Source of the DNA: an uncultured Clostridia bacterium
GTDB lineage: Bacteria; Bacillota; Clostridia; Christensenellales; UBA3700
DNA length: 64,000 bases
Assembly (NCBI GenBank): GCA_947646415.1
Contig: CANSGN010000001.1
Coordinates: 3,945 to 67,944 of the forward strand
Direction: 5' to 3'
Within the stretch, counting starts at the first letter, position 1. The number at the start of each line of letters is the position of its first letter. The translations under genes and the position numbers were made by a program. The notes below the pieces were generated by a model. That model was given only the letters and a program-made list of their open reading frames with translations, made no database searches and was not told the origin of the DNA. This document shows positions 5,137 through 37,177 of the stretch, in pieces.

Positions 5137-8097
5137 ATGGCAAAGATAATAAAAAGAGCGGGAATGATATTTTTTGTGTCAGTAATATCTTGTCTAATAG
5201 CTTTGGGTTGTATACTTACAATGCAAGTTGCTGAAAGCAACAATAATGGTATTGTAAATGCAGACACACAAAATAACATTTATACTAGCCAAAATAACGA
5301 GGATTATAAGACGAATTTTGATAGTACAACTTATGAAATCCCTGATGCGGAAAATGAGTTTGTCTTGGACTGTGATTGCCCGGATGGCGAGCCGTGTATG
5401 TGCGGTAATATGGAAAGTATTTGGATAAATGCAATTACAAAATCCCAAGAAACGGGTAAAAACGTCATGGTTGTTTTAGAAAGGGATTGGATTGCAAAAC
5501 TTGTAAATAATAACATGGTGTTTGGCTTAGGAGAAATTTGGAATGAAGGTCGTATTGCAATAGAGGATGGCGTCAATATAACTTTAGATTTAAACGGACA
5601 TACTATTGATAGAAAAATGACTGCTGATTTTTCAGCAGGTGTTTTAGATAGAGGTTGTGTAATTATTGTTTACGGAATTTTAAATTTAATTGACAGCAAA
5701 TACGATTCCGTAAAAATAAATAATGATTTCAATGCAATTAGAGCGTCAAAAAGCTTATTGACCGAATATTTGGAAAATTTAGAAATAGGTAGAATTACAG
5801 GTGGTTATAAAGAGACGGGTAACGGCGGAGGTGCTATTTATTGTAATGGTACACTAAATATTTATGGCGGTATGTTTACAGGTAACTATGGAACAAATGC
5901 CGGGGCAATTTACGGGGATAGCAATAGTCAGATAAATATTTATGATGGCATAGTAGCGAATAATAACGGTTATTATGTTGGTGGCGTTTATTCAAATTGC
6001 ATTTTAAACATTTATGGCGGAATTTATTTTAATAATGTCCAACTAGAGACATCGATACTTGCAACAAATCAAGGTGGGGCGGTATGTTATATGAATAAAA
6101 ATCGTGATTTTAATTTGTATGGCGGTAGATTTTTGTATAATGTCGGAAAAAATGGAGGAGGTATAAACATTGGTGCAGCGAAAAATGCAAATATATATAA
6201 TGCTACAATCGAATTTAACCAATCTGAAGTTAGTGGCGGCGGTTTAGCTATTCATCAAGTAAGTCAAACAAATATATATAATATAAAAATGGAAAATAAT
6301 ATAGCTTTGAACAGCGGCGGCGCAATTTACAGCGGTATATCAAGCATGGCATTAAATATTTACGATTGTGAAATAGACAATAATGGTGCAAGCGTGGAAG
6401 CTGGTGGTATATATACCGAGCATTCGATTAACTTATACGGTGGAAAAATTTACTCTAACAATTCAACAGGCTATGCGGGCGGAATATATAATGCTTCCTC
6501 CAATGTAGATGATTTGATACAAAAAGGATTTAATATCTATGGCGGTGTGCAAATATTTAACAATGTTACCGTACATGGTACATCCAATTTATATTTAAAG
6601 AATGACCAAAAAATATTTGTAAAAGGTGGATTGCATAATTCTGATGGCATTGCACATATAGGTGTAACACTGGCAGCAGATTACGGGGATGTGGAATTTA
6701 CATACTCAAAACTAAATAATAATTCACTAATGACTAAAGATGCGGATATGTATTTTTATTCGGATGTTAGTGGTTATTATGTAGAAACAACTACAGATAA
6801 GGAAGCCATAATGAAAGCAGGAACTCCTACATTGACCGAAATAACTTGGAGTTGGGGAGAATCCGAAGATTGCTCAACTACATCAAATTATGCAATTTTA
6901 AATTACAGTGGCAATGAGTTTACAATAACAACTTCTTTTGGGAAATTTTATAATGGTTCAGATTGGGGAATGAGTAGTTGCAATATTAAAAAAGCAGGAG
7001 AATATGTTTTTTATGTTAATGGAACTAATATAAAAAATCCTACTTTTACTTTAAAAATTGTCCCTGCTTATGTCGAGGTAGAATGGCAAAATGAGGATTT
7101 AGTTTATTCAGGATATAGTCAATCGATTCAAGCTAATTTAAAAGGTGTTTTGGGGAATGACGATTGTAGTGCTGTTGTTTCCGGCTCAGGTAAAGATGTC
7201 GGTAAATATATGAGCACTGTATCAGGATTGAGCGGAGTAGATAGTGGCAATTATCGTTTATTAAATAGTGTTTCCCAAACTTTTAACATTGTAAAAGCCA
7301 AATTGGAAAAACCAAAGGGTAGCGGCACATTTGAGTATGACGGAAGCGAAAAAGAATATATCCCAAACGGCTATAATAATGTGACAATGAATATAACAGG
7401 TAATAAAGCTACAGCAGTGGGTAATTACAATGCAACAGTATCACTAAAAGATAAGTATAACTATGTGTGGAATGACGGAGGAGTGGAAGATATAGTACTA
7501 CCATACTCAGTAACATTGACCCCACCTGTAGACGATGATGATAGTGAGTATAAGTTTATCTATATAGATAATGATGACGGAAAGCAAGTAAGAAAGACAT
7601 ACAAGCAAGGCGGCTTGGTACACGGTATAAACGATGGCGGAGTTAATGGCGGAAAATTGGTACTAGGCAATGTAAAGCCGAACACAAGTGTAAAAAGCTT
7701 TATACAAACCTTAGGATTTGAACAAAGCAAAATAACAATAAAGGATAGCAAGGGAAAGGATATATTTAAGGACGGAACCCCTGTTGATGCAAGTAAGTTT
7801 GATAACGGCAAAGAGCTAGCAGTAGGAACAGGCTGGAGTGTAGAGTACCAAAACAACGGGAATACGGAGACAATCTATATATCGGTATTAGGCGATGTGA
7901 ACGGAGATGGCAGGATAAGTGCAAGCGATGTATCCTACTTAAGACAAATAGCAAGTGACAACGCGTTATACGAAAGCTTAAGCGTGGAAAAGAAGTTAGC
8001 AAGTATGGTAATAAACAAAGGCAACGTGACAAGCGCGGATGCGGAAATAGTAAAAAATGTAATAAACAAAATGTTTGGAATAGATATTTTCTTTTAA
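5137..8097 (+). CDS. secreted repeat protein: N-terminal signal/anchor, GGxIY beta-helix repeats (Pmp-like), YDG/Ig-like modules, one C-terminal dockerin-like module
   Basis: GGAGG RBS at 5125-5129. Hydrophobic N-terminus MAKIIKRAGMIFFVSVISCLIALGC. Many GGGAIY/GGVYS...N repeats. C-terminus is LGDVNGDGRISASDVSYLRQIA...NKGNVTSADAEIV, an EF-hand-like dockerin pair. Paralog of 39596, 43252 and 57177. Confidence 0.8.
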   Translation: MAKIIKRAGMIFFVSVISCLIALGCILTMQVAESNNNGIVNADTQNNIYTSQNNEDYKTNFDSTTYEIPDAENEFVLDCDCPDGEPCMCGNMESIWINAITKSQETGKNVMVVLERDWIAKLVNNNMVFGLGEIWNEGRIAIEDGVNITLDLNGHTIDRKMTADFSAGVLDRGCVIIVYGILNLIDSKYDSVKINNDFNAIRASKSLLTEYLENLEIGRITGGYKETGNGGGAIYCNGTLNIYGGMFTGNYGTNAGAIYGDSNSQINIYDGIVANNNGYYVGGVYSNCILNIYGGIYFNNVQLETSILATNQGGAVCYMNKNRDFNLYGGRFLYNVGKNGGGINIGAAKNANIYNATIEFNQSEVSGGGLAIHQVSQTNIYNIKMENNIALNSGGAIYSGISSMALNIYDCEIDNNGASVEAGGIYTEHSINLYGGKIYSNNSTGYAGGIYNASSNVDDLIQKGFNIYGGVQIFNNVTVHGTSNLYLKNDQKIFVKGGLHNSDGIAHIGVTLAADYGDVEFTYSKLNNNSLMTKDADMYFYSDVSGYYVETTTDKEAIMKAGTPTLTEITWSWGESEDCSTTSNYAILNYSGNEFTITTSFGKFYNGSDWGMSSCNIKKAGEYVFYVNGTNIKNPTFTLKIVPAYVEVEWQNEDLVYSGYSQSIQANLKGVLGNDDCSAVVSGSGKDVGKYMSTVSGLSGVDSGNYRLLNSVSQTFNIVKAKLEKPKGSGTFEYDGSEKEYIPNGYNNVTMNITGNKATAVGNYNATVSLKDKYNYVWNDGGVEDIVLPYSVTLTPPVDDDDSEYKFIYIDNDDGKQVRKTYKQGGLVHGINDGGVNGGKLVLGNVKPNTSVKSFIQTLGFEQSKITIKDSKGKDIFKDGTPVDASKFDNGKELAVGTGWSVEYQNNGNTETIYISVLGDVNGDGRISASDVSYLRQIASDNALYESLSVEKKLASMVINKGNVTSADAEIVKNVINKMFGIDIFF

Positions 8098-25053: not shown

Positions 25054-26166
25054 ATGAGTAATTTACATAGTCATTTGCTTGTCAAAATTTCCGATAGCAA
25101 AACGGATAACTGCGTTGTACTTGGCAATATCCGTATATGCGTAATAACAGACAAACTGATTCGTGTGGAAATTGCCAAGGATAGCAACTTTTGCGATTTG
25201 CCTACACAAAAAGTTTGGCACAGGGCATTTGCAAATGCAACATTCGATTGTAAAGATAACGGCAAATTTATAACTGTAAAAACGCAAAGCACGCAGTTTG
25301 ATATTGACAAAAGCGGAAATATCGTTTGTGTAATTTTGGCTGACGGCAGGAGAGTAAAAGATTGTCGAAAAGGCAATTTGAAAGGCACTTGTAGGACGCT
25401 TGACGGAACTATCGGTGCAGTACCTTTAGGTAACGGAGTTGTATCCGAAAACGGGGTGGCAATACTTGATGACAGTAACTCGCTTTTGTACAATTTAGAT
25501 GGCGAATTGTGCGAAAATTCCTACAAAAATCGGGACTATTATGTTTTTGCATACGGCTATGAGTACCGTCAAGCGGTTGCGGATTTTTATAAACTAAGCG
25601 GTGTTACTCCACTTATGCCAAAGTATGTTTTGGGTAATTGGTGGAGCAGATATAGGGCATATACGCAGCAAGAATATCTTGACGTAATGGATAATTTTAT
25701 AAAACGAAATATCCCGCTTACTATAGCAACTGTGGATATGGATTGGCATTTAGTTAACGGCATAGACAACAAGTACAGGACAGGCAATCCTTATCCATGG
25801 GAGTCTACGGGTTGGACGGGTTATACTTGGAATGAGGAGCTGTTCCCCGACTACAAACAGTTTTTAAAAGATTTGCATGCCAAAAATTTAAAAGTTACGC
25901 TAAACCTTCATCCTGCCCGAGGTGTAAGAGGGTATGAGGCTATGTACAAGGATATGGCAGATGCTATGTGGGTAGATAGCAAAACGGAAAAACCAATCGA
26001 TTTCGATTTTATTAAATATCAATACAAAAATGCTGCAAAAACTATGGTATACAACAAATTTAAAAATGTAAATACAAAAGAAGATTTGCAAAAAGCACTT
26101 AACGGTTTGGCAGGACATAAACGCCTTAAATCCCAGCTTAAAGAATTGTTGTATATGGCTTTTTGA
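25054..26166 (+). pseudogene. truncated glycoside hydrolase family 31 gene (N-terminal ~320 aa only, unrelated tail)
   Basis: GH31-like ...LMPKYVLGNWWSRYRAYTQQEYLDVMDNF..IPL..ATVDMDWH...LNLHPA.GVR... The region that should hold the catalytic Asp (WIDW/xDMxE type) is absent. After about aa 323 the sequence becomes Lys-rich and unrelated, then stops at 370 aa. Full-length GH31 enzymes are much longer. Confidence 0.55.
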
Positions 26167-26469: not shown

Positions 26470-26973
26470 GTGAAAAAGATATTTTTAAAATCAATGGTTA
26501 TATCAATGTTGATGGTTTTAATGTTGGGTATGAGTATGCTCTTTGTCGGATGTGAAGATTATGAAAATAAAGTATATGAAATTACTTTGCACCCAATACA
26601 TCCTATAACAGGCGAAGAAAGAAGTGAAGCATATATGACAATAGACAGTGAGACTTTATACGGAGATAGAGAGTTTATAGAAATAAAGTTTAAAGAAAAA
26701 GGCAAAAAAAAGTTTTTGCCAAACAAATATATATCTTTAAACGAACTAAATCATTTGGTTGATATTTATGTGTCTACATTGGACAGTGACTACAAGGAAA
26801 CAATCATGTTGCACGGGTCAATAAAATATCCAGAAAATATCCCAAAAGAAAAAGGGACATATAGAATTCAAGTTGAATTCAACAACTATACTTATGATGG
26901 ATATGGAAATATGTTGAGGCTATCGACTAAATTTGAATCCACATATATTAATTTTGGATTAAAAATAATATAA
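26470..26973 (+). CDS. small putative lipoprotein, paralog 1 of 3
   Basis: GTG start after GGGGGG/AGGA. Signal peptide ends in LFVGC (lipobox-like). 167 aa. The leader DNA is nearly identical to that at 27627. Confidence 0.7.
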   Translation: MKKIFLKSMVISMLMVLMLGMSMLFVGCEDYENKVYEITLHPIHPITGEERSEAYMTIDSETLYGDREFIEIKFKEKGKKKFLPNKYISLNELNHLVDIYVSTLDSDYKETIMLHGSIKYPENIPKEKGTYRIQVEFNNYTYDGYGNMLRLSTKFESTYINFGLKII

Positions 26974-27108: not shown

Positions 27109-27612
27109 GTGAAGAAAATATTTTTAAAAACAATAGTTATATTAATGGTAACAGTTTTAATGTTAGGTATTAGTATGCTATTTGTGGGATGTGTAGAAGA
27201 GGAGGAAAAAGAGCCTGTATTTGAAATCAAGTTGTATGACGATAAATGGCAAGAACTAAAAAGACAAGGAGATAAAAGTTATACAAAGTATGAAGATTAT
27301 GTAGTAAAATATGACGGGACACGGAAGTTGTGTAATGCCATTGTATACAGAGACGGAAAAGAGTTTTATAGATTAGATTATAAGACAAATCCAAACTATT
27401 ATTATGATAGATGTTTAGAAGTATGTGAATATCGAAATGATTTTCATGAAGTCATTAAAGATAAAATGCCATATAAAGTAGGGGAGTATGAATTGATTTA
27501 TCAATATAGCTCCTATGGATATAGTAAAAACATAAATTATTTTGCAGGTAATCCATTGCCAATAAAGTATTATCATGATACGGAAAAAATTAAGCTAGTA
27601 ATACAAGAATAA
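27109..27612 (+). CDS. small putative lipoprotein, paralog 2 of 3
   Basis: GTG start after AGGAGG. LFVGC lipobox-like motif. Mature part VFEIKLYDDKWQELKRQG...YVVKYDGT is highly similar to the next gene. Confidence 0.75.
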   Translation: MKKIFLKTIVILMVTVLMLGISMLFVGCVEEEEKEPVFEIKLYDDKWQELKRQGDKSYTKYEDYVVKYDGTRKLCNAIVYRDGKEFYRLDYKTNPNYYYDRCLEVCEYRNDFHEVIKDKMPYKVGEYELIYQYSSYGYSKNINYFAGNPLPIKYYHDTEKIKLVIQE

Positions 27613-27626
27613 GGAGGGATAGGATT

Positions 27627-28142
27627 GTGAAAAAGATATTTTTAAAATCAATGGTTATAGTAATGTTGACAGTGTTAATGTTAGGTATTAGTATGCTATT
27701 TGTGGGATGTGTAAAAGAGGAGGAAAAAGAGCCTGTATTTGAAATCAAATTGTATGACGATAATTGGCAGGAACTAAAAAGACAAGGCAATGAAAAGTCT
27801 GCAATTTATGAAGATTATGTAGTCAAATATGATGGGACATACAAATTATGTAATGTGAAAGTTTTTAAAGATGAAAAGGAGTTTTATAGAATAGATTATA
27901 AAACAAATGGTACTTTTTATTATGAATATTTTTTGCAAATTAGAATAAGAAAAAAAGAAGATGATAGTGGGGTTTATGTGACAGGGTTTAATGATATGCC
28001 AACTGCAATAGGGGAATATGTTTTGATATGCGAATATAATTCCTATGGATATAGACATAGTCTTAATTATTTTTCGGACAATACATTCCCAGCAAAATAC
28101 TATTTGAAGAGCGAGACAGTTAACTTAATTATACAAGAATAA
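27627..28142 (+). CDS. small putative lipoprotein, paralog 3 of 3
   Basis: GTG start after AGGAGGGA. LFVGC. Tandem duplicate of 27109-27612. Confidence 0.75.
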   Translation: MKKIFLKSMVIVMLTVLMLGISMLFVGCVKEEEKEPVFEIKLYDDNWQELKRQGNEKSAIYEDYVVKYDGTYKLCNVKVFKDEKEFYRIDYKTNGTFYYEYFLQIRIRKKEDDSGVYVTGFNDMPTAIGEYVLICEYNSYGYRHSLNYFSDNTFPAKYYLKSETVNLIIQE

Positions 28143-28152
28143 GGAGAAAATT

Positions 28153-31100
28153 ATGTTAAAATACAAACAAAAAATATTAATTACGCTATTAGCGATTATT
28201 ATGTTGCTAATATGTGGCGTGATGATTTTGATTAATGCAAATATTGCGAAAGCAGAGGAAAACAGCTTTAATATAGAAGATTATACTAATAGTAATGAAT
28301 TTTACTATAATAATAGTACACGTAATATTGTAAATTATTTAGGTAATTTGTATGAGCCATATAATTTAACATACAGTGAATTACCAGATTTATACGGAAG
28401 TACAATAAAAAATTCAATAAACGGAATAATGGTTAGCGGAGATGACCCAATAGTGGGGATTGTTCCCAAAGAATTGTTAAAAAAGCCCAATCAACATTAT
28501 ACATATATGGGTAAAGAATATGGGCTTTTTGTAAAAACAGAAACGTTAGGTAATAATGTGTTATCAAATGTTATAGTTTATGATATTATTAATGATGACG
28601 ATTATGTCAAAAATAAAAGTCACATGAAATTTAGTATAAAAGTTTTGTTTCAAAGGGAATATTTGTATGTAGCAAATGCAGGGGACTATATGATAAAAAC
28701 AAGACGTTTTTTGCCTATAGTCCCGGGGGATAAAGTAATATATAAATTGAGTGAAAATATTGATACAACCTTTGTTTTACATGCACAACAGTCTGACTTG
28801 GTAATGCCAATGCCGTATTTTTTGGATAGTAATACAATGGTTTTATGTGACAGCCAACGGTATATAGTGCAAGACATTGTAAGTACAGTTGCATTATTTA
28901 ACGAGCAACACTTGAACGACGGAGACGAGGGATATAGCCCAAGGCTTGATATGGGTAAATTTATAACTCAAATAGATGGTGGTTATAAAGCAACGGTTTA
29001 TGATGTCAACGAAAAAAGCTTTTTTGAGGAACTGTTTAAAACAACTTTAATTGTAAAAGTGTGCGATGGGTTGGAATATGGCTTTGAAAAATTAGGATAT
29101 GGTGCATTGTGGGGATTGGGAGAGTTTGCTGCCGATGCTTATGATGCGTACATGGAAACAGCAGATAGATTACAACAGCTTACAAGAAATTTTACATATA
29201 TTTGCAAGGGTACAACAAGTCAAGAACAATTAGAACTTACAGGACAGTTGGCAAAATTCGGATTGTCTACACTTCAGTTTTTTAACGATGGTCAGTTTGG
29301 ACAAGGAAGCTATATGTTTTATGACGAGGGCGATTTTTACGAGGCAGATTATCAAATAGGATATACACCCGTATTGGATGAGTACAATCGATATAAGACG
29401 CCTTGGGAAGCAAGATTGGTAAGAGGATTTTCGTTAAAATTTGTTGACAGCAATGATAAATCTAATATAACAACATCTAGTGGAGTATACGATTTTTATT
29501 TAGCTGACAAAGAACATAAAGAATACTTAGGCTATCCTATTGCTAATAATACTGAGCACGTATCGATTTTGCCGGGTGGAAAAAATTTGTTGGCGTTTAT
29601 GCCTATTTTGCATTCCGGCAAATATAAATTAACTACTGTTGGTGCCAATGCACCGGTTAAATTATCTGTTAACATGGGAGGTATTGGCAGCACACAAGTA
29701 TATAACCAACATTTTGAAAATATAAATGAAAATGATATAGTTTTTGAGTTTGAAATTAAACAAGGGTCTATTTATGTTTTTGAGGTGCAATTTTTGGATA
29801 AACTACAGCAAGGTAATTTTGATGTTACATTGGAGTTTGTTCCTCAGGAATTGACTTGGGGAAATAATGAGGTATATGTTGATAATTTGCATGAAAGTTA
29901 TAGGATATACAGCGAAAAAACTTCTTATTTGGAATCAACTGTTTCAAAACCAAATTGGGGATGTGTTTTATATGATAAAAATTTAAAACAAATTTCTGAT
30001 TATAGATCGCTTAACAAAGATGAGTATCATTATATTCGTGTCGGAAGAGATTTTAATGTGGATTCTGCAGTGACTATTAATTTAAGACAGTATATAAACA
30101 TAAAATTAGAAAATATTGATAATATAGATAAATATTTATATCCATATTCAACGTATTATTTTGATTCGGATTTAGTACTTCCTACACCTACCAAAAACGG
30201 GTATGAATTTGAAGGATGGTGGACAAGCGTATATGATTTTGGAGAGTTGGTAACAAGTGAAAATATCGAAGATTTTGATGTAAGAGATATTACCTTATAT
30301 GCAAAATGGAAATCCATAACCTACAATGTACGGTATGTAACTAATGGTGGTAGCGGGATAGAAATGGATACCTACATATCTAACAATAGTTATCAGTTGC
30401 GTACCGATACATATAAGGATGGATATGTTTTGTACGGTTGGTACGATAACCCTGAATTTACAGGCGATAGAATAGAAGTAATTGAAAAGGGAAGTGTAGG
30501 AGATAAAGTTTTTTATGCAAGGTGGATAAAAAATGAATTTATAGTAACTCTTGACATTAACAAAAGTGCGACCGAGAATGTTGAAGCGCAGTTAGACACT
30601 AAGACGATTTTTGTAAATTATAATAACTATTTTACTCTTCCTGTGCCACGCATTGATGAATACGATTTTGATGGTTGGTATTATGGGGATATACAAATAA
30701 CCAATAAAAACGGAGAAAGTTATAGCAAGTTTACTTTTGAGCAAGATATTGAGTTGACTGCAGGTTGGACAAGAAATACATTCTTTATTTGTATGAATGA
30801 CGACGGCAACATACTATGGCTTGCAAAAGAAAACGGCGAGTACTATTTTACGGATAAAATTGCCGGCTTGAAAAAAGAAGATGAAATGTGCCCGAGTTGT
30901 TACATAAAATCACAATTACAGAACAATTCGGGCAGTGAATATACAAAAAATATAAAGGGACAACTGTTTAAGTCAGGACATATTTATAGGACAATGGCTT
31001 TAGAGCCTAAAAAAATAATTAGGGGCGAAGAGTTTGACGAGAACTTATGTTGTTGGAAACTTATTAACTTTATCCAAAACAATAAAAATAAGATAATTAA

Positions 31101-33117
31101 TATTTATCCTGTTTATGAGTTAGAAAGTTATACCGTAATGTTTGATATGAATGACAATTCGCAAGATATCGTAACAAAAACAGTTTATTATGGCGATAGT
31201 ATGACTCAATTTGAAATACCAACTAAGTTAGGTTATACTTTTGAAAATTGGGTAGTAAAAAACTTTGCAAATTATTATACAGAATATGGGTATGTTGCAA
31301 AAAATTTCCCTGCAGGGTTTATATTCCCTCAGGAAATGCCAGATTTAACAGCAGGAATTGAAAATTTTGTTCAACCTAGCATTATGTTAGCACCAAAATA
31401 TTTATCCAATGAGTATACGGTTAGATTTGCAGGAGAAAATATCTATTTTGATGCTAAAAAAGTACTTTTTGGCAAGAGCTATAGTAATAATGATAGAAAT
31501 GCTTTTCCGATTCCAATGAAAACCGGTTATTATTTTGATGGTTGGTACAGTGGAACAAACGGAACAGGTAAAAAAGTCGTGAACGAGTATGGTGCTATTG
31601 ACAGTTGGAATATTGCTAACGATTGTACTTTGTATGCATACTTTACGCCGATTCACTATCAAATGAGATTTGATTTTTGCGGTGGTAACGGAGATGTAAG
31701 TGCATTGGAAGTAATTTTTGACCAACCTTTACCTAATACTATTGCACCGACTAGGACAGGGTATACATTTGCAGGTTATTTTGATAGAACTGATGGTAAC
31801 GGAACTCTATACTATAATCAAAATATGGTTGGAATGATGACTTGGACAAATACGGAAAGTAAAACGCTTTATGCACATTGGACGGCAAATACTTATACAG
31901 TTAATTTAAACAATCAAGGTGGTAACGGCGGGGATGTACAGTTTACAGTAACCTACGGACAACCATTGCCGGATAATTTAGAAGCACCGTCAAAAATGGG
32001 AAATTATTTTAGAGGTTATTATTCCGATTATGATGGTCGCGGTACGTATTATTTGGATAGTACAATGAAATCAATGAATAATTGGGCTATAGCTCACGAC
32101 ACTACATTATATGCTAAATGGGAAGTTCGTTATTTAAACATAACAGTAAGATATGAGTATGTGGAAGACGATGTATTTAAAACATTAGCAACAAGAGATA
32201 TTGTACTTGCAGGAGATGAAACACTTTACTTTGATGCTCCTGTATATGAGGGATTTACGTTTGAAAAGTGGAGGGCACATGGCAGTGACAGCAAAGATTT
32301 ATCACAAGTTCCACGAAAAGTATTAGCACAAGCAGAAACTTCTAATGCTATATCAATAAATTTTGATTATTACAAAAAACTTATGAATTATAGGTACCTA
32401 TTCTTATGTGCTCACTATCAAAAAAATAACTGCATAGCAGAGGGCTCAATGATAACTCTTGCCGATGGTAGTCAAAAGGCTGTTGAAGATTTGACAGGAA
32501 ACGAACAATTATTGGTTTGGAACTTGATGACAGGAAAATTTGATACTGCACCTATTTTGTTTATTGATAGTGACTCCGAAAGTAAATATCAAGTTGTCAA
32601 CTTGCATTTTTCGGACGGAACTATCGTTAAAGTAATTTCCGAACATGCTTTTTGGGATTTTGATTTGAACAAATATGTTTTTTTAAGGAGTGACGCAGAT
32701 AAATATATCGGGCATTGGTTTAACAAACAAATAACCAATAGTAATGGCGATATGGCTTGGACAAAGGTGCAGTTGACAAATGTGCAAATTACAAGTGAAA
32801 AAACGAGGGCTTTTAGTCCTGTTACATACAGCCATTTGTGTTATTATGTCAATGGAATGCTTTCAATACCCGGTGCTACCGAGGGGTTGATTAACATTTT
32901 TGAAGTTGACAGTCAAACAATGCAGATAGATATCGAAAAATTTAATGCTGATATTGAAAGATATGGTTTATACAGTTATGAGGAGTTTTCTCAAATCGTA
33001 CCTGTCACTGAAGAAGTATTTAATGCTTTTAACGGACAATATTTGAAAGTTGCTATTGGAAAAGGCTTAACAACAATAGAAAAACTTCAAAATTTAGTCG
33101 CAGTTTATTTTAATTAA
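28153..33117 (+). CDS. 1654-aa secreted/anchored protein: unknown N-terminal region, about 8 Listeria/Bacteroides-type (Flg_new-like) repeats, C-terminal Hint (intein-like) domain plus 68-aa tail
   Basis: N-terminal TM/signal segment ILITLLAIIMLLICGVMILI. Repeats of the GY.F.GWY...G type (GYEFEGWW, GYVLYGWYDNPEFTG, GYYFDGWYSGTNGTG, GYTFAGYFDRTDGNG and others) span about 30170-32290. The Hint-like block starts at Cys1427 (32431): CIAEGSMITLADGSQKAVEDL...VISEHAFW... Confidence 0.8.
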   Translation: MLKYKQKILITLLAIIMLLICGVMILINANIAKAEENSFNIEDYTNSNEFYYNNSTRNIVNYLGNLYEPYNLTYSELPDLYGSTIKNSINGIMVSGDDPIVGIVPKELLKKPNQHYTYMGKEYGLFVKTETLGNNVLSNVIVYDIINDDDYVKNKSHMKFSIKVLFQREYLYVANAGDYMIKTRRFLPIVPGDKVIYKLSENIDTTFVLHAQQSDLVMPMPYFLDSNTMVLCDSQRYIVQDIVSTVALFNEQHLNDGDEGYSPRLDMGKFITQIDGGYKATVYDVNEKSFFEELFKTTLIVKVCDGLEYGFEKLGYGALWGLGEFAADAYDAYMETADRLQQLTRNFTYICKGTTSQEQLELTGQLAKFGLSTLQFFNDGQFGQGSYMFYDEGDFYEADYQIGYTPVLDEYNRYKTPWEARLVRGFSLKFVDSNDKSNITTSSGVYDFYLADKEHKEYLGYPIANNTEHVSILPGGKNLLAFMPILHSGKYKLTTVGANAPVKLSVNMGGIGSTQVYNQHFENINENDIVFEFEIKQGSIYVFEVQFLDKLQQGNFDVTLEFVPQELTWGNNEVYVDNLHESYRIYSEKTSYLESTVSKPNWGCVLYDKNLKQISDYRSLNKDEYHYIRVGRDFNVDSAVTINLRQYINIKLENIDNIDKYLYPYSTYYFDSDLVLPTPTKNGYEFEGWWTSVYDFGELVTSENIEDFDVRDITLYAKWKSITYNVRYVTNGGSGIEMDTYISNNSYQLRTDTYKDGYVLYGWYDNPEFTGDRIEVIEKGSVGDKVFYARWIKNEFIVTLDINKSATENVEAQLDTKTIFVNYNNYFTLPVPRIDEYDFDGWYYGDIQITNKNGESYSKFTFEQDIELTAGWTRNTFFICMNDDGNILWLAKENGEYYFTDKIAGLKKEDEMCPSCYIKSQLQNNSGSEYTKNIKGQLFKSGHIYRTMALEPKKIIRGEEFDENLCCWKLINFIQNNKNKIINIYPVYELESYTVMFDMNDNSQDIVTKTVYYGDSMTQFEIPTKLGYTFENWVVKNFANYYTEYGYVAKNFPAGFIFPQEMPDLTAGIENFVQPSIMLAPKYLSNEYTVRFAGENIYFDAKKVLFGKSYSNNDRNAFPIPMKTGYYFDGWYSGTNGTGKKVVNEYGAIDSWNIANDCTLYAYFTPIHYQMRFDFCGGNGDVSALEVIFDQPLPNTIAPTRTGYTFAGYFDRTDGNGTLYYNQNMVGMMTWTNTESKTLYAHWTANTYTVNLNNQGGNGGDVQFTVTYGQPLPDNLEAPSKMGNYFRGYYSDYDGRGTYYLDSTMKSMNNWAIAHDTTLYAKWEVRYLNITVRYEYVEDDVFKTLATRDIVLAGDETLYFDAPVYEGFTFEKWRAHGSDSKDLSQVPRKVLAQAETSNAISINFDYYKKLMNYRYLFLCAHYQKNNCIAEGSMITLADGSQKAVEDLTGNEQLLVWNLMTGKFDTAPILFIDSDSESKYQVVNLHFSDGTIVKVISEHAFWDFDLNKYVFLRSDADKYIGHWFNKQITNSNGDMAWTKVQLTNVQITSEKTRAFSPVTYSHLCYYVNGMLSIPGATEGLINIFEVDSQTMQIDIEKFNADIERYGLYSYEEFSQIVPVTEEVFNAFNGQYLKVAIGKGLTTIEKLQNLVAVYFN

Positions 33118-34268: not shown

Positions 34269-34988
34269 ATGATTAACATAGCGATTTGCGATGACGATAA
34301 AACAATTATAGATACAATTTATAATGAGATACATACTATTGACCTTGATGGTGTTAAATTGAATGTCAGTACTTTTTTAGACGGCAATGATTTATTAAAA
34401 GCTTACAAAACTTCGGGGCAATTTAATATTGTTTTTATGGATATCGAGATTGGTGGCAGCAACGGCATTGAAATTATAGAGGAAATTCGCCGTTTTGATT
34501 CGGAGGTAATTGTCATTTTTGTGACAAGCTATCCTTATTATGTAGTAAAAGCGTTGCGTGTAGGAGCTTTTCAGTATTTAACAAAACCAATAGTACTAAG
34601 TGATTTGAAAAAAGATTTTATAAGAGCGGTCAATGTTTATAATAGTAAATACAGCGATTATAGATTTCAATCGAATGGCAATATCATAGTAAAACGCATT
34701 ATTGACATTTATGCAATAGAAGTTAAAAATAAAAAGATGTATGTTTATTTAGGCGATAAGATTTACGAGGAAGATGTTAGGTCGTCGCTAAAAGAAAAAG
34801 AGGATAAGTTTATCACACATCATTTTGTAAAATGCCATAAAAGTTATATGGTTAATATGTGGAAGATAAGTGAAATAAAAAAGGATGATATAATTTTGAA
34901 AAACGGTTACAGCATACCATTAAGTAGAAATTTTAGAAACTTTGTACTAGAAAAATTTAATGTTTTTATATCGAGGCAAAAAATATGA
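34269..34988 (+). CDS. LytTR-family response regulator (AgrA-like)
   Basis: Receiver domain MINIAICDDD...FMDIEI..., C-terminal LytTR-like part ...FVKCHKSYMVN...SIPLSR. 239 aa. Confidence 0.85.
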   Translation: MINIAICDDDKTIIDTIYNEIHTIDLDGVKLNVSTFLDGNDLLKAYKTSGQFNIVFMDIEIGGSNGIEIIEEIRRFDSEVIVIFVTSYPYYVVKALRVGAFQYLTKPIVLSDLKKDFIRAVNVYNSKYSDYRFQSNGNIIVKRIIDIYAIEVKNKKMYVYLGDKIYEEDVRSSLKEKEDKFITHHFVKCHKSYMVNMWKISEIKKDDIILKNGYSIPLSRNFRNFVLEKFNVFISRQKI

Positions 34989-36289
34989 ATGTAGTTTTTG
35001 TTATAGTAAAGATATTAAGTGTTATAATGGAGCTTTTTATTGTTGATTTTGTTTTTCGGTCACTTAGGGAAAACAGGCTGGATAAAATAAAAAGATTTTT
35101 GATATACGGCACTTTTATTATTGTTCGCTCTGTGGCGATTTGTTTTATAAATTTTACAATTATCAATTTACTGATTTCTTTTACTAATTGCTTTTTAATA
35201 TCCCTGTTTTACAAAATAAAATGGTTTAAAAGAGTTCTTGTTACTATTGCAATGACCTTAGGTTTTGTGTTGACTGAAATGTTGGTGGGTTTGATTGTAA
35301 GTAGCTTGACAAGTGCCTCTATTGTGGAAATTCAGTCAAATGTTGTGTTTTTTATAGAAAGTGTATTATGCTCCAAATTGGTAATGATGATTTTTGCGCA
35401 AGCAGTGCGATTGATTATCCGCAAAGATAGTTCTAAATTGTCCGTTGGTATGTATGCGGCACTATTTATTATGCCTGTTGCTACCTGCTTTATTGTGTTT
35501 GCAGCTTCCGAAGTTATTTATAAAAACAACGATTTGTATTTAACGATTATAATGATAGTAGGTGTGATAAGCATTTTAATCGCGAACTATATTTTGATGT
35601 ATGTTGCGGAGAAAAACGTCAAGCAAATCGTGGATGAGGCTACAAATGAGTTTTTAAAGCAAGAGCTTGTCCAACAACACAAATATTATGAAGATTTAAT
35701 ATCAAAATATAAATTCAATAATAAAAAAATACATGATATCGACAAACAACTGTTGGTATTAAACAGTATGATAAATGCTAACGGGTTTGAAAATGCAGGA
35801 CAAGAATTGTTAAAAGTCAATCAAATAGTCGAGGGCGCAAAAAGTATTGGATATACGGGTATAGCATCCATAGATGCTTTGCTTAATAACATAGAGGATA
35901 AAAGTAAGCAATATAATATACAATTTAAAAAGCATATTTTTATTGATGAAATTGTAAAAACAAACGAAATGGATTTTTGTTTGCTACTAGGTAATTTGCT
36001 TGATAATGCCATTGAAGAGTGTTTAAGATTAATTGAGGAAAATAAAACAGATTTATTTATGATATGCGACATCAAAAAGGTAGATAACTACCTAAATATA
36101 GTAGTAGAAAATTCGTGTAGGGAAAAGGAGACCTTAACTACTTCCAAATCAAATAAATATAAACACGGATACGGGTTGCATATTATTGACGAGATTGTGC
36201 AAAAATTTGACGGCAGCATAAAAAGAGAAAGAATTGACGGCGTGTTTACTACAATGATAATATTAAACACACATGTTAGGGCAGTATAA
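34985..36289 (+). CDS. AgrC-like membrane sensor histidine kinase (GHKL, HPK10 type)
   Basis: About 6 N-terminal TM helices, H-box KKIHDIDKQL, N-box GNLLDNAIEE, G-box HGYGLHIIDEIV. Start overlaps the regulator's stop. Confidence 0.85.
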   Translation: MNVVFVIVKILSVIMELFIVDFVFRSLRENRLDKIKRFLIYGTFIIVRSVAICFINFTIINLLISFTNCFLISLFYKIKWFKRVLVTIAMTLGFVLTEMLVGLIVSSLTSASIVEIQSNVVFFIESVLCSKLVMMIFAQAVRLIIRKDSSKLSVGMYAALFIMPVATCFIVFAASEVIYKNNDLYLTIIMIVGVISILIANYILMYVAEKNVKQIVDEATNEFLKQELVQQHKYYEDLISKYKFNNKKIHDIDKQLLVLNSMINANGFENAGQELLKVNQIVEGAKSIGYTGIASIDALLNNIEDKSKQYNIQFKKHIFIDEIVKTNEMDFCLLLGNLLDNAIEECLRLIEENKTDLFMICDIKKVDNYLNIVVENSCREKETLTTSKSNKYKHGYGLHIIDEIVQKFDGSIKRERIDGVFTTMIILNTHVRAV

Positions 36290-36357
36290 ATACGCGTTAG
36301 GACAAAAGTATTTGAAAACTTAATAAAACATGTTATTGTATACTAAAGGAGGCTTTA

Positions 36358-36948
36358 ATGCTTAAATTTCTATCGCATAAGATGACATGCTTTTTTATTA
36401 GAAAAAATGTAATTGAGCAATCTGAAGAAGAAACCTATGATTACTGTTTTGAAATATTACTTTCAACTTTAATGAATTTATTTTCAATTATTATAATTGC
36501 CGTTTGCACCCAAACATATCTATCAAGTTTTTTATTTATCGTTATTTTTATGATTATGCGTTCTTTGTCAGGTGGTTATCACGCTGACACCCATTTCAGA
36601 TGTTTTTTAATATTGTTGTTTGTTTATTCCGGTTTGATATTGTCTATTAAATTTTTACCAAATGTTTTTTTTATAAGCCTTATTTTTAATGTTTTTTCTT
36701 TAATTCTGTATCCAATATTAGCACCGGTAGAGCATTATAATAATCCTATGGATAAAATCAAAAAAAGAAAGTTGAAAGTCAAAAGCATATTAGCCTCTCT
36801 TATAATTATATGCGCAAGCAGTGTAATGGTATTTTTTACTCCGACCGAAATTATAGGTTTCACTATGGCATATACCAATTTTGTCGTAGTCATATCATGT
36901 CTTTTTTCGGTATTTAAAAACAAATTATTACATAATAAGGCAGGATAA
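36358..36948 (+). CDS. agrB: AgrB-like accessory gene regulator B (autoinducing-peptide maturation protease)
   Basis: Polytopic, 196 aa, with the conserved motif RSLSGGYHADTHFRC (catalytic His/Cys spacing as in AgrB). AAGGAGG RBS. Confidence 0.8.
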   Translation: MLKFLSHKMTCFFIRKNVIEQSEEETYDYCFEILLSTLMNLFSIIIIAVCTQTYLSSFLFIVIFMIMRSLSGGYHADTHFRCFLILLFVYSGLILSIKFLPNVFFISLIFNVFSLILYPILAPVEHYNNPMDKIKKRKLKVKSILASLIIICASSVMVFFTPTEIIGFTMAYTNFVVVISCLFSVFKNKLLHNKAG

Positions 36949-37027
36949 GTACCTGTCAGGACATAGTTATGGACTTTATTCGACAAAAGTGCTTTAATAA
37001 AGTAAATCAGCAAAGGAGGACATAAAT

Positions 37028-37177
37028 ATGAATGAGAAAAAAAATAACAAGTTTTTTTCTAAATGCGTAACAAAAGCAGCTTTAACTTTGGGCGAAAAAT
37101 CGGTAAGTTCCGCATGCTCATGGTGGTTCTGCCAACCTAAAGTGCCTGCTAGTATGCAAAAAACAGAGAAAAAATAA
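37028..37177 (+). CDS. agrD: AgrD-like autoinducing peptide precursor (49 aa)
   Basis: AGGAGG sits 7 nt before the ATG. Translation MNEKKNNKFFSKCVTKAALTLGEKSVSSACSWWFCQPKVPASMQKTEKK: amphipathic leader, Cys+4 core (CSWWF), then a QP..P charged tail, as in clostridial AgrD peptides (SACLWFTHQPEEP type). Lies directly after agrB. Too short for the ORF track. Confidence 0.7.
   Translation: MNEKKNNKFFSKCVTKAALTLGEKSVSSACSWWFCQPKVPASMQKTEKK

Follow-up and report, generated by a model that had tools for sequence, protein, structure and literature searches.

The window, i.e., the whole 64,000-nt stretch of DNA that we analysed (contig CANSGN010000001.1 of an uncultured Clostridia bacterium), encodes a 1654-aa secreted protein whose last 228 residues, hereafter the module, are best explained, on a predicted structure, as a self-contained autoprocessing cassette arranged as in Hedgehog's C-terminal half, with a family-specific tail after a Hint domain. 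Our analysis directly establishes the fold, an invariant Cys and His, a constant C-terminal position on unrelated secreted cargo, and the absence of splice residues. From the alignments and the structural model, we infer that the protein probably cleaves itself before Cys1427 by way of a thioester. A preliminary description of this DNA had placed a Hint (intein-like) domain at 32431-33117, and translation agrees exactly, this interval encoding Cys1427 to the stop of the 1654-aa protein. The parts of the gene are listed below.

28153-33117, + strand: open reading frame (ORF) of the 1654-aa protein (translated; the last 228 codons and the stop are 32431-33117)
28153..28254, + strand: Sec signal peptide, residues 1-34, ending ...NANIAKA before EE (read from the translation, no predictor)
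28255..32430, + strand: cargo, residues 35-1426, with Flg_new repeats (Pfam, NCBIfam)
32431..32868, + strand: Hint-fold domain, module residues 1-146 (AlphaFold2, Foldseek)
32869..33114, + strand: conserved tail, module residues 147-228 (AlphaFold2; two short strands and five helices)

The module is predicted to adopt the Hint fold

Sequence comparison alone was insufficient for assigning the module to Hint: searches of Pfam, NCBIfam, and PDB sequences (single-sequence and profile) gave only sub-threshold matches, and the fold therefore had to be shown by structure prediction. Apart from PF01079 (discussed below), no Hint-type Pfam family, PT-HINT included, was reported at E <= 0.1, and the NCBIfam scan gave a faint match to an intein-bearing DnaB model and nothing else.

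Using AlphaFold2, we obtained a model of the 228-aa module with a predicted local distance difference test score (pLDDT) of 95.3 and a predicted template modelling (TM) score, pTM, of 0.89. Foldseek comparison of this model with the PDB returned 63 matches at E <= 0.001, and all 50 that were listed are Hedgehog-C, intein or bacterial intein-like (BIL) structures. The top matches are Hedgehog-C 6tyy and 1at0 (E = 6.8e-8, TM score on the target 0.74), followed with nearly equal scores by the Ssp DnaB and Mtu RecA mini-inteins, Tetrahymena BIL2 and the Clostridium thermocellum BIL 2lwy; matches span ~150 columns, with TM scores on the target of 0.6-0.8. Hedgehog is ranked first, but the margin is too small to separate it from the inteins. 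The N-terminal part of the module thus adopts the Hint fold in the predicted structure, and AlphaFold2 together with Foldseek has found what the preliminary description had asked profile or structure searches to look for.

Predicted catalytic residues and their conservation

Three residues of the window protein correspond to same-numbered residues of Hedgehog-C.

32431..32433, + strand: Cys1427 (module residue 1), predicted nucleophile; invariant, aligns with Cys1 of 1at0
32566..32568, + strand: Asp1472 (module D46); aligns with Asp46 of Hedgehog-C
32644..32646, + strand: His1498 (module H72), block-B histidine; invariant, aligns with His72 of 1at0

HMMER alignments to 1at0 are gapless over residues 1-72, so that C1, D46 and H72 fall on the same-numbered Hedgehog residues. 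Homologous modules are 60-76% identical in the main subfamily, and our genome survey found a divergent sister subfamily (33-38% identical) that was found in one genus (g110). The Hint hallmarks noticed earlier are real and well above what chance would give: Cys1 is present in 230/230 homologous modules and in all 27 rows of an alignment that includes the divergent subfamily, and both C1 and H72 are invariant in the two subfamilies across 33-76% identity, as are, among others, G13, G35, F60, Y92, F97 and L115. Block A (C-x-x-x-G/D-T-x-I-T-L-A-D-G) is intein-like. The residue before H72 is acidic in nearly all members; it is E71 in modules of the main subfamily and usually D in the divergent ones.

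The Hint domain ends in ...NGMLS-(I/M)-P-G in the main subfamily and in ...AEGMLT-(V/M/L)-A-P in the divergent branch. A conserved C-terminal Asn and a +1 Cys/Ser/Thr are absent from the alignments of both subfamilies, and because of this neither splicing nor a second cut is expected. Among the three outcomes that the preliminary description had entertained, liberation of the tail as a product is disfavoured, as there is no chemistry for a second cut, and release or re-attachment of the N-terminal part is the best reading. At the other end, Cys1 is preceded by a small or polar residue that is not fixed (S, E, N, A, G, T and others), and in the divergent subfamily Ser/Gly linkers lead up to it, which fits an exposed scissile bond. 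In the window protein, the cargo ends in ...HYQKNN directly ahead of the predicted scissile bond.

A constant position on unrelated cargo

With the C-terminal region as query, we were able to identify 1150 proteins in a 90%-clustered protein collection; at the level of 50%-identity clusters, it matched 2951 representatives, of which 1295 had E < 1e-30. The module is always C-terminal, with the end of the protein at most 12 residues away in 217 of 230 cases, which bears out the earlier statement that the domain is not inserted in a host enzyme. The N-terminal parts of the carriers are unrelated and include Flg_new, LRR_5, LRR_8 and Peptidase_S8 as well as papain-like and alpha/beta-hydrolase domains, and the start of the module interrupts no cargo domain family. 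Full-length module proteins have signal peptides and an N-terminus of the kind seen in the window protein. Judged from the sequences, such a position and cargo range mark the module as a C-terminal unit for processing or sorting.

The window protein itself fits the description of a secreted surface-type protein that the domain ends, as had been proposed. Its signal peptide starts with MLKYKQK and has a basic n-region, a hydrophobic core and an AxA site. The N-terminal ~640 aa of the cargo are without a family match, and Flg_new (Listeria-Bacteroides) repeats come after them (Pfam PF09479, E = 2e-39, six stretches; also NCBIfam TIGR02543). Neither an LPXTG motif nor a C-terminal membrane span is present in the 1654-aa protein, and its source genome contains one copy of the module. 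The window protein and its closest homologue (P0003) are near-identical along the Hint-tail module and most of the cargo. Over the ~95 residues that end the cargo ahead of Cys1427 (window ~32150-32430), the two are unrelated in sequence, and the comparison suggests a mosaic exchange of the domain that adjoins the scissile bond.

The conserved C-terminal tail

The preliminary description had a helical-looking tail of 68 aa after the Hint domain. A helical tail does follow; its length, which depends on where the boundary is drawn, comes to ~82 aa when counted after the last Hint strand (helices start at module residue 168, ~61 helical residues). D174, Y178, G179 and K206 of the tail are invariant in both subfamilies, and mean column identity is 52% with the divergent subfamily included. 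Between subfamilies, conservation of the tail matches that of the Hint core, an argument for a role beyond space-filling. It is not hydrophobic and is therefore not a membrane anchor. Modelled alone with AlphaFold2, the tail still folds (pLDDT 86); Foldseek found no PDB fold match for this tail-only model at E <= 0.001.

When a profile of the tail was used to look for stand-alone relatives, only short proteins were found, none with a Pfam match or an informative name. Many of these matches start at the internal Met of ...S-M-P-G, and we read the stand-alone ORFs as likely stumps of decayed module genes. In a common gut species, one tail-only ORF of 87 aa (MPGGISGLFNIFEVD...; L136-L138, position 6001-6264) follows the gene for V-type ATPase subunit D at a distance of 14 nt in many contigs, and the DNA beyond it differs between contigs; it is probably what remains, at a recombination-prone junction, of a deleted module gene.

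In 13 of the 230 module proteins (e.g., P0064, P0086, P0144 and P0195), an extra 40-124 residues follow the tail. These extensions mostly consist of an acidic linker and then basic His/Gly/Asn-rich runs ending in RRRGR, and resemble an appendage that binds metal or the wall; they would remain on the fragment left after cleavage.

Proposed mechanism

In the mechanism that we propose, the 1654-aa precursor would be exported by Sec, and Cys1427 would attack the Asn1426-Cys1427 bond, an N-to-S acyl shift giving a thioester. His1498 would assist the shift and so, in the main subfamily, would Asp1472. A nucleophile would then resolve the thioester, and the ~1390-residue cargo (35-1426) would part from a 25.8-kDa Hint-plus-tail fragment, with no second cut and no splicing expected. 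Clustering of the neighbours of 27 module genes at 22 loci found no partner gene family common to all neighbourhoods, which counts for a self-sufficient module and hence for self-cleavage.

How the thioester would be resolved is a matter of lower confidence. Resolution by water, which would amount to shedding or maturation of the cargo, has in our estimate somewhat less than an even chance. Hedgehog-style transfer to a specific acceptor positioned by the tail, which would tether the cargo, is a more tentative proposal. In favour of such a transfer are the conservation of the tail, the presence of Asp46 throughout the main subfamily, cargo of the adhesin type in genomes poor in sortase, and the precedent of the Tetrahymena BIL; the acidic, non-lipophilic tail and the loss of Asp46 in the sister subfamily weigh against it. 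Slightly more tentative still is a fuller version, in which the module would act as a built-in sorter that needs no sortase, the bacterial counterpart to Hedgehog cholesteroylation: the tail would present a specific nucleophile of the envelope or of a target (lipids, wall polymers, peptidoglycan amines and host molecules are candidates), and the cargo would be covalently tethered by its C-terminus with its N-terminal region held by the co-encoded lipoprotein.

Several observations speak against an active, Hedgehog-like module. The score of PF01079 on the module (16.8 bits, E = 0.005; 15.5 bits for the whole protein) is below the cut-off of 29.7, and the match covers only profile positions 13-87 of 213, i.e., the first 75 module residues. 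A profile of 29 family members matched PDB sequences only weakly (E = 0.3-1.5); Hint structures account for two of its three best matches, namely Hedgehog-C 1at0 and the Npu DnaB intein 4o1r. The block-B-like (S/T)xxH motif of the preliminary description holds for its histidine, His72 (His1498), but the position three before it is Ile, so that it is not a true (S/T)xxH: the motif is V-I-S-E-H, Thr69 of the Hedgehog TxxH is Ile in the window protein, and this position is Ile or Val in the family. Asp46, which we take to be the general base for the transfer step in Hedgehog (Drosophila D303), is invariant in the main subfamily; it is A/S/N/C/Y in the divergent one, followed by His47 in most members, and since it is not conserved there it is not a universal catalytic base. 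The tail, acidic (pI, the isoelectric point, of 4.2) and non-hydrophobic, is unlike the region expected to bind a lipid or sterol.

Alternative explanations

Some of these same observations would suit a catalytically dead Hint domain that, with its tail, is a structural or binding module only (e.g., for surface retention) and cuts no bond. The missing Thr of TxxH, the non-universal Asp46 and a tail without a known fold are in keeping with such a domain, and the basic His/Gly/Asn-rich extension after the tail in some proteins suits surface retention. The invariance of Cys1 and the block-B His over 33-76% identity is hard to explain without catalysis, though, and a disulfide role for Cys1 was considered and rejected: the divergent subfamily retains Cys1 but not Cys137, its sole possible partner. 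We consider a dead domain unlikely.

A release of the 82-aa tail as a small effector, with immunity provided by a neighbouring gene, would make the module one of the polymorphic-toxin type, in which Hint autopeptidases directly precede a C-terminal toxin domain (PMC3482391); a small lipoprotein gene is indeed tightly linked. However, the tail is conserved and the N-terminal part variable, the reverse of a polymorphic toxin, so that the analogy drawn in the preliminary description does not carry over. There is also no C-terminal Asn or other residue for a cut after Hint, the downstream genes are not conserved, and PT-HINT is not among the Pfam families at E <= 0.1. The lipoproteins fall into at least 23 clusters and track the cargo's N-terminal region, whereas the tail barely varies, and a toxin is in our view very improbable. 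Less credible still is a true intein or A-type BIL that would excise itself and ligate cargo and tail. The module does share its fold with the mini-inteins and with the C. thermocellum BIL 2lwy, and its block A is intein-like, but NGMLS-(M/I)-P-G or AEGMLT-(V/M/L)-A-P stands where inteins have His-Asn and then Cys/Ser/Thr, and there is no host enzyme and no homing endonuclease around a module that is always terminal.

Comparison with known systems

The layout of the module is closest to that of the Hog domain, which consists of Hint and a sterol- or adduct-recognition region (Burglin 2008, PMC2362128). Shared with Hog proteins are a secreted, variable N-terminal part followed by Cys, Hint and a family-specific tail of 60-80 aa at the extreme C-terminus (PMC2362128). 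Hedgehog-C (1at0, 6tyy) accounts for the two best structural matches, with C1, D46 and H72 in gapless register, and the module and Hedgehog are both without C-terminal splice residues. Unlike Hog, the module is bacterial and, with its PF01079 score under the cut-off, is no member of PF01079 by the Pfam threshold; it has Ile for Thr69, its D46 is lost in the sister subfamily, and its acidic, soluble-looking tail has no detectable relation to the sterol-recognition region. To our knowledge, sterol is not expected in these bacteria.

Secreted bacterial proteins that end in a Hint-like domain, B-type BILs included, are known from a group of Proteobacteria and Myxobacteria (Dassa & Pietrokovski; PMC2362128), whose domains mainly conserve motifs A and B and are distinct from inteins (PMC2362128). 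The window protein resembles them as a secreted bacterial protein with a terminal Hint-like domain. It differs in that their members share a conserved upstream region whereas the cargo of the module is unrelated between members, and in its gut Clostridia hosts and the conserved helical tail after Hint. The BIL2 of Tetrahymena BUBL (PDB 6y75, 6tmm) has the same fold and is among the top matches (E ~1e-7). There, the Hint thioester conjugates the upstream domain to other molecules, a precedent for transfer over hydrolysis. BIL2 is, in contrast to the module, eukaryotic and intracellular, with ubiquitin-like cargo and no helical tail, and the N143A substitution in its PDB entries indicates a C-terminal Asn that the module lacks.

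Polymorphic-toxin HINT autopeptidases, described by Zhang et al. 2012 (PMC3482391), likewise belong to large secreted bacterial proteins that have adhesin-like repeats, and lie near their C-terminus (PMC3482391). In those, a hypervariable toxin domain and an immunity gene follow; in the module, the tail is conserved and no conserved immunity-like gene lies downstream. As a functional analogy only, the module can also be likened to the LPXTG signals of sortase substrates, a conserved C-terminal element on many unrelated Sec-exported surface proteins. Sortase removes the LPXTG signal through a thioester intermediate at the new C-terminus of the cargo. Sortase is a separate enzyme, whereas in the module the enzyme would be part of its substrate. 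From the known C-terminal Hint proteins, the module differs in the conserved helical tail, the huge cargo range, the gut Clostridia hosts and the linked lipoprotein gene.

Upstream lipoproteins and genomic neighborhood

Three paralogous genes for small lipoproteins precede the giant gene in the window.

26470..26973, + strand: small lipoprotein gene 1, 167 aa, lipobox ...LFVGC (translation; first of the three paralogues)
27109..27612, + strand: small lipoprotein gene 2, 167 aa, lipobox ...LFVGC (translation)
27627..28142, + strand: small lipoprotein gene 3, 171 aa (translation; stops 10 nt 5' of the giant gene and corresponds to the lipoprotein found ahead of the module gene in most loci)

The product of gene 1 has no Pfam or NCBIfam family at threshold; by clustering, gene 2 groups with gene 3 and with the orthologous 166-aa gene of locus L002. 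In the main subfamily, the immediately upstream same-strand gene (<=150 nt) has a lipobox in 29 of 40 loci as compared to 40 of 366 other ORFs (odds ratio 21, Fisher p = 9e-17), where the 366 ORFs come from the same loci and include spurious ones, the loci are not fully independent, and the lipobox was scored by a simple regular expression (about five more upstream genes look like lipoproteins that it missed). Clustering by sequence divides the upstream lipoproteins into at least 23 groups, most of which have no Pfam match. Among locus pairs with similar lipoproteins, the N-terminal regions of the cargo are similar too in 46 of 52 (odds ratio 163), a pattern that co-inheritance of adjacent genes could also yield. 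Because the lipoprotein family co-varies with this region, the lipoprotein goes with this part of the cargo rather than with the Hint module, and most likely it partners that region at the membrane. Docking of the conserved tail on a conserved lipoprotein was also considered, and was rejected since the lipoproteins are so diverse and no neighbouring family occurs at all of the 22 clustered loci.

Genes downstream of the module are not conserved and differ between loci. An agr-type quorum-sensing set (LytTR response regulator, GHKL kinase and AgrB) adjoins module genes in five loci, namely the window (34269-37177), L037, L040, L041 and L042, and a related genome (G004) has three module genes, each with its own agr-type set upstream; the surface proteins that carry the module may be under quorum-sensing control. 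Further upstream in the window, a GH31-family gene (25054-26166) encodes 370 aa; its counterpart in the orthologous locus L002, which has the same position, encodes 794 aa, and the window copy looks truncated.

Distribution of the module

Carriers are mostly metagenome-assembled genomes of uncultured Christensenella/Christensenellaceae and other gut Clostridia, sampled in mice, humans, chickens and ruminants. Our scan found 174 module loci among GTDB species representatives. The distribution is patchy: the module is found in 10 of 41 close relatives and in 14 of 399 genomes sampled across the class. Loci of the sister subfamily (L034-L036 and L048-L050) have 2-3 tandem giant genes each (~1070-2850 aa), and an upstream lipoprotein is absent from them. 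The only named cultured strain among the matches listed is Pumilibacter intestinalis CLA-AA-M10 (L123, 4503-5696), whose copy of 397 aa begins inside the repeat region and is without a signal peptide; it is probably a 5'-truncated remnant and would make a poor native system. We found no description of the module family in the literature, and the family is without a family-level match in the Pfam and NCBIfam copies searched.

Sortase in module-bearing genomes

Sortase (PF04203) was not found in the source genome (96.5% complete), nor in the 24 other genomes of its family (25 searched in all); it is present in 11 of the 16 other families of the order. Elsewhere in the class, PF04203 was not found in 11 of 13 module-bearing genomes, and it occurs in 194 of the 400 genomes of the class sample. 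Two of 14 module-bearing genomes have a sortase versus 192 of 386 others (Fisher p = 0.012), a contrast confounded by relatedness as seven of the 14 belong to one genus. Occurrence of the module without sortase is a tendency in these genomes, and not a demonstrated replacement.

Significance

Hint domains cut, splice or lipidate proteins, and the Hedgehog layout of Hint plus adduct tail has, as far as we know, so far been regarded as eukaryotic. New in the present analysis are the sister subfamily and the minimal set of invariant residues that it defines, the quantification of lipoprotein linkage and co-variation, and the sortase comparison. An abundant family with the Hedgehog layout ends thousands of adhesin-like and protease cargoes in gut Clostridia that are mostly without a detectable sortase. 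If the module only cleaves, a large fraction of the surface proteins of these organisms would pass through a new step of maturation or shedding. If it transfers its cargo, it would offer biotechnology a compact, self-acting ligation tag, and for the bacteria themselves it would be a new covalent surface-anchoring chemistry and a possible bacterial relative of Hedgehog processing.

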